The notes below the pieces were generated by a model, which made no database searches, was not told the DNA's origin, and saw only the letters and a list, made by a program, of their open reading frames with translations. Below are positions 26,249 to 54,678 of a stretch of 64,000 nucleotides of DNA, piece by piece; within the stretch, counting starts at the first letter, position 1; every line of letters starts with the position of its first letter. The stretch spans positions 165,850,001 through 165,914,000 of the forward strand of contig OZ024743.1 in the NCBI GenBank assembly GCA_964016885.1, in the 5' to 3' direction. Made by a program: the position numbers and the translations under genes. This DNA is from Eledone cirrhosa. Its lineage: Eukaryota.

Positions 26249-26680
26249 ATAAACGGAAAAAATGAAACGATATTTCATTTCCCACTCTTAGTACGCTGTT
26301 ACTTAAATATAAGTATGTACACGTACATACATATATGTATACCGACGTACAGTAGTATGTATATATATATATATATATATACATACATGCACACATATAT
26401 ACATGCACGTATGGATTCACCGAACATTTATTATAATGCTCGGTGTGTTTGTAAACAAACATCCTGTATTAAGCCGTAGTGTCTAGCAACCACCGTTGCT
26501 CGTTTGTTCAACACTGACAAAGGAACGCTGTACTAGTTTCAAGCTTGTTAGCTATCGTCAGCAACGTATACCTTCGGTGAATCCATACGTGCATGTATAT
26601 ATGTGTGGATGTATGTATATATATATATACATACTACTGTACGTCGGTATACATATATGTATGTACGTGTACATACTTAT
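26249..26680 (-). mobile_element. Dispersed copy of the retrozyme-like unit with an intact HHR (26525-26567) and an inverted segment (about 26573-26680)
   Basis: Matches the array unit; flanked by (TA)n. Confidence 0.9.
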
Positions 26681-26709
26681 ATATATAAATATATATATAT
26701 ATATATATA

Positions 26710-28125
26710 TGAAATATAAGAATCAAAGAACTGTTCAAAACATTATTGTGCTTACAGCTGTTTCCTCCAAACCGAGGTTTGGATTCTTCGGAGCAATTTA
26801 TTAATGCATGGACAGTTATATGACCTCCTTTTCAGCCGAGAGACATACCAATACATATTCAAACATTGATACATATTCAAACATTGTGGGTCAACATTCA
26901 TTACAGAATTTAGAGTGGCAGTACACACTTCGAGATTACATTTATATTAATAGGTACAATCAAAAATCAAAGATATAGGTTAAAATACAACATGAAGATA
27001 AGCGGTTATATAGTGCAAATGTTATATGTGTGGCACGCATGTGCGTCTTATTTATATAGTGTGGCAGAGAGATATGTGTGGTAGAGGCACTTAGGTAGGT
27101 AAATAAGAGTGTTAGGTTGGTAGATCTGGTGGCAAATTCTTTATATGATTGATATAGTCTGTGTGTGGAGAAATATTATAAGCATTAATAGTGCAAGCAT
27201 TAAAAGTGTTATAAGTAATGGAGATGCACAGCGCAGGGATGTCAAGTATTTCATGTACTTCGGCATTTTCATGGTCAGGGGAGTGTATTTTTCGATTATA
27301 TGCCCTTCACATAATCCACGACAATCCAGTTAGAGATCGTAGTCTGGTGTTCTTTAGTTCGATACAGGAGGTTGTTACGTTTCTAGAAACGCCATTGAAT
27401 ACCGCCCGGAAGTGTGTGTGTGGCAAAGGGGAGTTAATGCATGCGGGGAGGTAACTCTGGGGTTTCTATATCTAGCCATTAAAATGTGTCCCAATATAGA
27501 CCCTAAATTCTATGGTGATGCGCATCTTCCAAGAGAGATTTTTAAAGCATAAAGTGTATTAACTATAGAGTAGTTTAACTAAGTTATGCTGAAGGTGATC
27601 ATATTATTATGGTGGATTAACCCATCTTAAAGTGCTACAAATGGAAATTATAGATGATGAGCGAGGATTCTAAATTAATGATCTCTGTGGTTGTAGTCTG
27701 CTCATATGACCAGGCGCGGTGATTGCAGGCTTGCTTCAGGACCCAATGATCTCTGGTAAGATCTGGGTCATCGCTTGCTACATTTGATGTCGAAAGATAA
27801 TCATCCCCAGGCCGGCCAAAGGTCAATCCGCAGTCCTCGCGACCCCTCTCTGACCGTCAGATCATCCATATACGTACAACCCGCCCGGCAGTTGCAATGC
27901 ATTCACTCACTGCGCTCAGCAGTCCGGTCCTACTGGTCAACAGCGCTACTCGATTAAATCATTTTACATCCGTCTAAGGAAGGTGTTTCCTCTGCACAAC
28001 ACTATCCAACCGATCAATTCATGCTCAAATTACCCTTAGAGCGGTGTAGTGCCGTTCAAGTGGGTGGAAACAGTTGTAAGCACAATAATGTTTTGAACAG
28101 TTCTTTGATTCTTATATTTCATATA
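26710..28125 (-). mobile_element. PLE-like relic with inverted termini and an HHR (26749-26795, core CCGAAGA)
   Basis: 26710-26765 is inverted at about 28066-28125; minus strand tgct CCGAAGA atccaaacc tc ggtttggag GAAA cagctg TA agca. Confidence 0.6.
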
Positions 28126-28491
28126 ACTGCTCTGTAAATCATCTGATGTTTTTACATTGAGCTACTTAACTTACTGGTAATAAGGTAGTAATACAATACT
28201 GCCTACCACTATTTAGGGTGTGTGTAAAATACTTACAACTGCTTAAGGTCTTGTATTTACATAACCATAAATAGTATAACTAATACTATATATATATATA
28301 TATATATATATATATATATATATAGATAGATATATATGTAGGAGGTGAGTTTTATTGTAGTACAATAAAGCAATGCAGATATCGGATAAGAAGCACTCTA
28401 CAGTTTGTAGGACTTGCTCCTTAACGGTTGAGCGCTTACTCTCATATTGGATACCTTTTGATGGTCTTTTACTTCTTTCTTCTTCTACAAC

Positions 28492-52883: not shown

Positions 52884-53304
52884 CGACTGTCAATGTAAAA
52901 TTCTGGTATTTATACATTTTTCATGGTAAGGGGAGGATAGTGGTGGGAGGAGGTAGAGGTCATGGTGGGATAAAAGAATGGGGATGCTGAGAAAAAACAA
53001 AATTTATTTCGAGAAAGAAGTTTAGTGGCAAGTTGCAATTGAAATAAACATTTCCTTATTCTATAGTACAATTTTGAATAAAGGGTATATCAAGTACTTG
53101 ATCGAACATCTGTAGAAATGGTAGGTAGGACAAGGTTACAAGCGCACACGCCAACACACATGCGCCCACGCTCACGCACACACACACACACACACACACA
53201 CACACGCACATAAATACATATATACACATACATATATACAGACACACATACACACATGTATATATATATGTATATATACATACATATATATATATACATA
53301 TATA

Positions 53305-53908
53305 TGGTGGCTGCCAACTCGTTTTCGAGTATGGCCACTACTTTATATCCATGTAGGAGAACTCCTACCGATGCGCTGAACGAATGTGACTTTAGTCCAG
53401 CCAGCGACTTGAAAACTCTGGTACAAACACTACACTTGTGACAATTATTGACCCATAGTGCTAGGCCCATTGTACCCTGTGACGACAAGTGCAGAGAGAT
53501 CTCCAGATATAAAGCAATGCCTGTGCCGTGAAGCTTTTATAGTGAGCAAAGGCACTGCACAAAGCCAGTCCCACTCTCTTAACCAACATGATATTTACCA
53601 AAAAGAAGAACAAGTCAACATCATTGGATACCATCAGGGTTCCAGGTGTTATATCAGAGTTTTCCTTCTCCTAGAATTCTGCCTTGACAAAGGCTAAGGG
53701 GTCATCTCTCCCGGTAATTTTGGATGGCCATTGACTCTTAAGAGTCGTTTGCCCTTTGACAGGTTTTGTTTTTAGTCCTGCAGGATGTCCAAAGTCACCC
53801 TCCTCACCAAGAAACCTTAGTGGGGTTGCCAGTTTAGTCGCCAACGACCCGACCATGGGACAGGTTGTACTGGAATACATGTTACCAGTAGCACCAACTG
53901 GTGACCAT
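53305..53908 (-). mobile_element. Probable RTE-derived non-autonomous element
   Basis: CSVCTRVFKSLAGLKSH C2H2-like motif resembling RTE C-termini; flanked by TA-rich repeats. Confidence 0.4.
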
Positions 53909-54280
53909 ATATATATATACATATATACATATACATATATACATATATATAAATATATATATATACATATATATATATACATATATACATATATATAAAT
54001 ATATATATATATACACACACTCTTACACATATATATATATATATATATATATATATATATATATATATATATATATATATATAAATTAGCAAGAATCGTA
54101 TTTCGGCTATTGGAAATTAGCGAAAAAACAACTTCCGAGATGTGTGGCAAGCGCTCCATAGAAGCTAGTGGACTAGAACTACAACATAAGTTAAAAGGCC
54201 AAACACACTGAGACGATGGTTAAACCATTATCCGCACAGCCATAGAAACGACCAATCAATTCGTGTCAAACAAATAAAAT

Positions 54281-54678
54281 ATAAACGGAAAAGATGAAAC
54301 GAAATTTCATTTCTCACTCTTAGTACGGCTGTTACTTAAATATAAGTATATATACGTACATACATATATGTATACAGACGTACAGTAGTATGTATATATA
54401 TATACATACATGCACACATATAAATGTACGTATGGATTCACCGAACATTTATTATAATGCTCGGTGTGTTTGTAAACAAACATCCCGTATTAAGCCGTAC
54501 AGTGTCTAGCAACCATCGTTGCTCATTTGTTCAACACTGACAAAGGAACGCTCTACTAATCGACCGAGTTAATCGCTGTGAGTTAATCGGCCGAGGTACC
54601 GAAAACGTTAAACGGAAAAAATGAATTTCGTTTCATTTTTCCGTTTATCGTTTTAGGTACACCCGGCCGATTAACTCA
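54281..54678 (-). mobile_element. Dispersed, internally deleted retrozyme-like copy ending in a fold-back hairpin
   Basis: Matches the array unit to about 54557; HHR core missing; hairpin about 54578-54678. Confidence 0.85.

Follow-up and report, generated by a model that had tools for sequence, protein, structure and literature searches.

Three fold-back copies of one repeat in the window (the whole stretch of DNA analysed, 64,000 nt of the Eledone cirrhosa contig OZ024743.1, assembly GCA_964016885.1, positions 165,850,001 to 165,914,000) belong to a non-coding hammerhead family with two fixed 3′ ends, which is probably a non-autonomous retrozyme copied into (TA)n by a Penelope-like element (PLE) acting in trans. 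Fixed points were found at both ends of the fold-back insertions and the family was therefore likely moved by a Penelope-like retrotransposon. The element is of a known kind. New are the rule by which its ends are paired and a set of edit-marked copies, which bring evidence on a hitherto untested step; the edit-marked units suggest rolling-circle copying of one RNA. The movement of retrozymes via circular RNA and a PLE enzyme has so far been a hypothesis, as put in the accessible text of PMC4209133 and PMC7229834, and here the end signature of PLEs is found in a young family whose insertions number thousands.

The repeat family and its copies in the window

There are two subfamilies, the younger with a unit of 420 bp and the older with one of ~435 bp. 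The GC content of the unit is 37.6% and its longest ATG-initiated ORF comprises 53 aa, i.e. it is non-coding and has no ORF specifying the RT and the GIY-YIG endonuclease that define an autonomous PLE. Each tandem unit contains a type I hammerhead on the strand opposite to the ATAAACGGAAAA motif, in which the core is accompanied by stems I and II and by a stem III that is short and palindromic. The Rfam scan at the gathering threshold gave no match to the unit hammerhead, so that its assignment is based on motif and fold. The 12 core positions are conserved (mismatch of 1.4% vs 4.4% elsewhere). Hammerheads with a short palindromic stem III are said to require dimers (PMC4209133, accessible part). 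The repeat is a non-LTR retrozyme with self-cleavage predicted from its sequence; the testable features of this class were found, namely a hammerhead per unit, tandem units within 150–450 bp, GC below 50% and the absence of coding capacity.

Exact matches to an internal 27-nt anchor number 10,314 in the genome (3.0 Gb), as against none for the reversed control. The first 100 anchor matches (C1, 0–37.5 Mb) were used as the positional sample, to which we added the 30 best similarity matches and, from each of two junction searches, 50 of the 100 listed matches (100 loci, some overlapping). This gave 166 insertion groups in total, three groups cut by a region edge being dropped; most of the sampled loci lie within the first 76 Mb of C1. 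An array of 51 units was found at L247-L249 (C1:51.772-51.794 Mb), and in L233 the units are embedded singly in a larger tandem repeat with a period of ~770 bp. An older relative of the unit, 67–72% identical and with its own hammerhead, is present at L273:551-905 and also in L338. In L273 it abuts a 5′-truncated Hydra-type RT fragment in the same sense, and this junction is possibly a template switch.

The features of the window that bear on the family are the following (A and B are the two fixed 3′ ends, at unit positions 1–9 and 53–66).

14671..20001, minus strand: tandem array of 12.3 retrozyme units (~435 bp), missed in the initial annotation
26249..26575, minus strand: copy 1, arm putatively primed at site A, unit 1-318, by sequence comparison
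26573..26685, plus strand: copy 1, inverted arm to site B in (TA)n, with a 3-nt overlap at the fold
28336..31872, plus strand: autonomous Hydra-clade PLE between copies 1 and 2, by its open ORF and motifs
31892..32334, minus strand: copy 2, arm putatively primed at site A, 1.06 units, by sequence comparison
32335..32847, plus strand: copy 2, inverted arm of 1.2 units to site B, with a predicted hammerhead at ~32592-32635
54281..54558, minus strand: copy 3, arm putatively primed at site A, stopping ~5 nt past the predicted cut, with an AT-rich flank
54559..54678, no strand assigned: copy 3, short jumps and a small hairpin, unit ~390-18 and 32-392

The initial annotation described copies at 26249, 31892 and 54281 which share one end and are inverted at the other. 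We have now confirmed that all three start with ATAAACGGAAAA. The distance of ~270–280 nt from this end to the cleavage site agrees with the predicted hammerhead cuts, which lie 282, 271 and 273 nt away, and the inversions were found to start at 26573, 32335 and 54619-54625. Of the sequence in front of the copies, described as TA-rich, the left flank of copy 3 is AT-rich but not (TA)n. In the A-arm of copy 1 the hammerhead core is intact and its cut is predicted to fall between 26530 and 26531; copy 2 sits in (TA)n at the end of the Hydra-type PLE at 28336-31872. In both these copies, the inverted arm runs out to B, the second of the fixed ends (unit position 60), where it meets (TA)n. The hairpin of copy 3 is atypical and joins (TA)n at a non-standard end near unit position 392. 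Together with L075, this copy (54559-54678) represents small hairpins near unit 392-399 joined to (TA)n, whose ends are possibly a minor third start site. The array at 14671-20001 ends 3′ at site B in (TA)n and is truncated 5′ into (TA)n; its units diverge by 4–13% and form a mosaic of shared variants. The six 1-kb flanks of the three copies share a single repeat match, which does not abut them. The flanks are thus unrelated and the copies are not parts of a segmental duplication, the case named beforehand as refuting.

A further A/B fold-back copy is located just past the right end of the window (L341:5775-6502). Within the window, the array is preceded by ~8 kb (6200-14670) of an almost pure (TA)n-type repeat, in which a run of N occurs. 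Fold-back (self-inverted) repeats of unrelated families were observed at 27-311, 666-1094, 2881-2926, 3153-3262, 4775-4901 and 21017-21142, and a 63-bp inverted pair (26706-26768 and 28063-28125) surrounds ~1.3 kb of repetitive sequence beside copy 1. Several degraded LINE-type RT/endonuclease elements in both orientations lie at 34100-48940, as judged by eye from the translations.

Two fixed ends, one for each side of the insertion

The sites A and B are 59 nt apart in the unit. The positional sample comprised 59 groups, three of which are local duplicates; here, 41 of the 3′ ends were automatically called at A, 40 at B and 11 elsewhere. The total of 81/92 at A or B did not change after 24 odd loci had been reread by eye. 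These 81 ends fall within 23 of 155 possible positions (p ~7e-55), far beyond chance in this sample; random endpoints had been named as the other refuting case. According to the automatic calls, 37/41 ends at A and 34/40 at B are flanked by TA, as compared with 1/11 of the others. Genome-wide, there are 2,412 exact junctions of TA with A and 3,502 of TA with B.

The two sites are used in a strictly paired manner. Both outer ends are fixed in 69 A/B insertions, 2 A/A insertions (L007 and L027, the exceptions) and no B/B insertion (p 2e-18). The automatic calls before rereading were 70 A/B, 2 B/B and 1 A/A; by rereading, the 2 B/B and two more insertions became A/B, one A/B was dropped, one more insertion became A/A and four duplicates were removed. 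A single fixed end was automatically called in 57 groups, and an odd end or no 3′ end in 33. Among the loci picked later for their variants, 13 two-armed insertions terminate on both sides at the fixed sites or close to them, and all of these pair A with B. Target duplications of non-LTR retrozymes, where visible, exceed 4 bp. Duplicated words of ~9–13 bp, which may be such duplications, were found at four non-TA sites (L013, L017, L030 and L099), while such words are unreadable in pure (TA)n.

In the accessible descriptions, PLE insertions exhibit 5′ truncation, partial tandems, an inverted 5′ copy, a tail that is often present at one end, and a bias to (TA)n (PMC8557442), and the PLE ‘tail’ is the stretch from one internal RT start site to the other (PMC11167929). 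Judging by its sequence position, the A-B span is such a tail, delimited by two putative reverse-transcription start sites, one of which would be used per DNA end. Two fixed ends, a one-ended tail, 5′ truncation, an inverted 5′ copy and microsatellite targeting, i.e. features of a PLE-mobilised element, were observed. The fold-back feature noticed first is textbook PLE anatomy, and the earlier PLE reading of the three copies is supported: fixed 3′ ends, scattered 5′ ends and inverted 5′ partners recur in the genome sampling as dispersed copies with unrelated flanks, and the proposed movement through RNA agrees with the fixed 3′ ends in (TA)n and with strand-specific A>G clusters. The proposal that one fixed site is primed in (TA)n held as to the fixed end, but there are two sites, one per insertion end. 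Moreover, the fixed site is on the RNA, whereas any (TA)n or AT-rich DNA can be the target and not one fixed DNA site. No prior report of the strict end pairing was found in a survey mostly of titles and abstract openings; the supplements of PMC8557442 and PMC7229834 may include the present family or comparable data on ends.

Truncated ends, fold junctions and the template

The arms that appear to be primed at A or B pass the ribozyme cut site in 137/191 cases, and therefore a cut linear monomer is not the usual template. The 5′ ends show a flat distribution around the cut, with 6/191 lying within 5 nt of it (~5.5 expected). Arms longer than one unit make up 88/191 of the total and 32/191 cross two cut sites. 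A 5′-end peak at unit 299-310 in the first sample was gone once 191 arms were counted, and a peak at unit 147 proved to be an artefact of a TA run. An overlap of at least 2 nt was found in 14/27 exact fold junctions compared with 17% expected; not included in this count are one inexact junction and a further 26 in which insertions occur or the overlap is long.

The two arms of one insertion copy overlapping sequence and resemble each other. In 45 two-armed insertions, the arm divergence is 4.1% within and 6.1% between insertions (p 3e-7), the arms agree in subfamily in 38/39 cases, and 46/330 rare variants recur in the other arm (3.8 expected). Gene conversion could contribute to this likeness, as could the common age of the arms. 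The reading of L125, L070 and the window array as products of a dimer circle was ruled out by their end units, which break the period. All three are block duplications that arose before or after insertion, with period-2 blocks in L125 and L070. The circle of the unit folds strongly (z -7 vs 40 shuffles), much of this strength probably being due to a TA-rich palindrome. Hammerhead cleavage was not needed for in vitro insertion by the anole PLE (PMC11167929, accessible text), and circle-templated copying of more than one unit is presented as a hypothesis in the parts of PMC4209133 and PMC7229834 available.

Copies marked by A>G changes

In L219, nine units distributed across two inverted arms exhibit one private difference at the scored sites. 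The L219 marker 352A has 18 matches, nine of them inside L219, and none of the other nine carries the full L219 haplotype. One unit of an older array, L232, carries both L219 markers searched. The second of these markers led to L231 (C2:78.935-78.937 Mb), a young 5.8-unit insertion ending at B. This insertion shares seven lineage variants with its sister L219 and adds eight, all of which are A>G on the ribozyme strand and are present in every unit covering them (8/8 of one change type, p 3e-9 to 2e-7). One L231 marker pattern has 6 matches, all within L231, and searches of the assembly with L231 marker patterns found no edited parent. The first and last partial units carry the same changes, so that later tandem expansion alone does not account for them. 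The L231 pattern is explained by a circular template, by gene conversion or by an edited parent that is missing. The same likely edits in every unit would mean that one RNA circle was copied round and round.

Two other L231 patterns yielded eight further insertions, which were thus picked for 2–3 such changes. At their unselected sites, 37 A>G and 4 U>C changes were found among 123 rare changes (p 1e-7), and the 5′ neighbour of the A>G sites is U or A in 31/37 cases (p 0.011), a modest bias. According to the accessible text of PMC5625713, the ADAR motif is depleted of G upstream and octopus is among the most hyper-edited animals. Some A>G changes are common to both inverted arms in L268 and L257, and to units in L269. 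The main sample contained no hyper-edited segment (0/298), the per-site strand asymmetry was not significant family-wide (p=0.41), and the pooled excess of shared variants (36 vs 17) was driven by a few recurrent sites. The A>G clusters, as read from the assembly alone, are probably ADAR editing fixed by reverse transcription. No prior report of edited retrozyme copies or of rolling-circle evidence was found among titles and abstract openings, subscription papers being mostly outside this scope.

Some likelihood attaches to the view that the PLE-type mechanism operated but the templates were always uncleaved linear multimers and circles had no part, although we consider it rather doubtful. The identity of units would then be due to gene conversion, to parent arrays that were themselves homogeneous or to tandem expansion at a later time. 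Successive units of L267 and L256 carry different A>G sets, which means that multimers were also copied and argues against the monomer circle as a rule. The period-2 blocks in L125 and L070, the mosaic of the window array and the role of unprocessed RNA as the main in vitro substrate (PMC11167929, accessible part) are in agreement with this. However, the end units of L231 with their same edits indicate that even the pre-expansion insertion held the edited region twice, the assembly lacks an L231 parent, and the full L219 haplotype was found in 0/9 of the other 352A matches.

It is unlikely that the A>G clusters arose in another way than by RNA editing, i.e. as lineage variants, biased RT errors or assembly-polishing errors. 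The sites 227, 236 and 243 are in fact common lineage variants (13–15%), the eight insertions had been picked for such changes, the U>C mirror control gave one new locus and no cluster, which is too few to weigh, and contigs of five sequencing runs (X10, X11, X13, X14 and X15) did not confirm the letters of L231. On the other hand, the changes of L231 relative to its sister are of one type, the excess at unselected sites and the bias of the 5′ neighbour point to editing, and changes private to one copy are symmetric (80 vs 70). The spread of the family as DNA (a MITE-like fold-back element, a recombining satellite or segmental duplication) might be suggested by the terminal inverted arms, the TA targets and a few local duplicates (L074, L096/L097, L126). 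This explanation is largely refuted and appears highly improbable, since each of the two arms has a fixed site of its own, the fold point varies from copy to copy with few exceptions, many insertions are single-armed, the flanks are unrelated and the A>G signal is strand-specific.

A candidate mobiliser

The neighbour at 28336-31872 is, according to its sequence, a Hydra-clade PLE. Its open 799-aa RT/GIY-YIG ORF (28492-30888) contains the motifs RWI, DKT, CNCPIKNKC, CNLC and CLH, and the element fits the Hydra description in the accessible text of PMC8557442 (RWK-like, DKT, CxCx5C, CxxC and CxH motifs, C-terminal EN, hammerhead and (TA)n). A Pfam search with two PLE proteins gave no matches. 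The element has its own predicted long-stem-II hammerhead at 31760-31826, an inverted tail at its 5′ end and two TA-joined ends of its own ~91 nt apart, opposite ends being paired in the window copy, L132 and L147. An automatic end tally for this element was unreliable, as 13/30 loci were unscored and some internal sites were miscalled as ends. This PLE family is very abundant, and the ORF is open in many of the 56 matches scored. A second Hydra-type hammerhead is located at 56373 (plus strand) and a fragment of another Hydra-type RT family at 61850-62365 (plus strand) of the window; several Hydra-type families exist, each with a distinct hammerhead.

The neighbouring PLE is a candidate mobiliser of the retrozyme. 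As a partner marked by sequence it was rejected, because it shares no sequence with the unit beyond chance, and the likeness of start sites between the unit and the element is also at chance level (169/500 shuffles). The 80 loci of Hydra-type PLE proteins (some overlapping) and 66 upstream flanks yielded no autonomous PLE bearing a matching repeat, and other Hydra-type families had no matching terminal repeat in 50 loci and 20 re-examined more widely.

Model of insertion

The arrays would be transcribed on the ribozyme strand. At a TA-rich target, a PLE enzyme would cut the two strands ~9–13 bp apart, a stagger suggested by the four non-TA sites. From the observed ends and their pairing, we infer that priming takes place at RNA site A for one DNA end and, 59 nt away, at B for the other. 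The two cDNAs break off at scattered points and are joined head to head, in many cases with the 2–5 nt of microhomology seen at the junctions. The read-through shows that the template is not a cut linear monomer. We lean slightly towards the view that some insertions derive from one circular monomer read several times, others deriving from a multimer. ADAR is likely to edit the structured RNA before it is copied. Each (TA)n insertion probably also lengthens the microsatellite.

In its most specific form, the model takes the ADAR edits as single-molecule barcodes which reveal that the PLE RT copies one circular retrozyme RNA by rolling circle, with one start site per target end. We propose this form tentatively, its prospects being a little short of even. 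If true, it would provide genomic proof of the model of circRNA retrotransposition proposed in 2014 and 2020, and a ribozyme retroelement would have written heritable RNA edits into the genome of an animal. The 11/92 ends located elsewhere, the two A/A insertions and the rarity of hyper-editing count against our best explanation. The countable rule of one start site per DNA end constrains integration by a dimeric PLE enzyme, and edit-marked copies can separate circle from multimer templates.

Relation to other retroelements

In L1 twin priming, second-strand priming results in a 5′ inversion with microhomology. Unlike this, the arms of the Eledone family copy overlapping sequence and the first arm runs past the second primer site. 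The family resembles EN+ PLEs (Craig et al. 2021, PMC8557442, accessible text) in 5′ truncation, partial tandems, the inverted 5′ copy, the one-ended tail and the bias to (TA)n. It differs from them in having no ORF and a tail of 59 nt instead of 30–40 nt, and the one-tail rule has here been counted (69/71). In Anolis Poseidon PAc, two internal start sites similarly set the genomic ends and the targets are AT-rich (Frangieh et al. 2024, PMC11167929). In the in vitro experiments described in the accessible part of that paper, the start site was the same for both strands, whereas the two ends of an Eledone insertion almost never share one site. Compared with PAc, the Eledone sites A and B both end in TA-like letters, which could pair with the target.

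Clusters of strand-biased edits fixed in genomic copies are analogous to those of APOBEC-edited LTR retrotransposons (PMC4866542, accessible text). In contrast to them, the changes described here are of the ADAR type (A>G, RNA strand) and not G>A DNA editing, and they occur in a non-LTR element of invertebrate type.

For metazoan non-LTR retrozymes, PLEs have been proposed as mobilisers and circRNA as the template (Cervera and de la Pena 2020, PMC7229834; Li et al., bioRxiv 10.64898/2026.07.22.740005), and retrozymes have been proposed to be non-autonomous PLE derivatives (bioRxiv 10.64898/2026.07.22.740005). A match of the pLTR to an autonomous PLE was not found here, whereas 24/57 Xenopus families match Repbase elements according to the accessible text of these two sources. 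The Eledone family has the short tandem non-coding repeats, type I hammerhead, low GC content, thousands of copies and range from monomers to multimers known from metazoan retrozymes (PMC7229834). To the descriptions in the available parts of PMC7229834 and bioRxiv 10.64898/2026.07.22.740005, it adds two fixed ends with strict A/B pairing, as well as inverted arms and edit-marked units.
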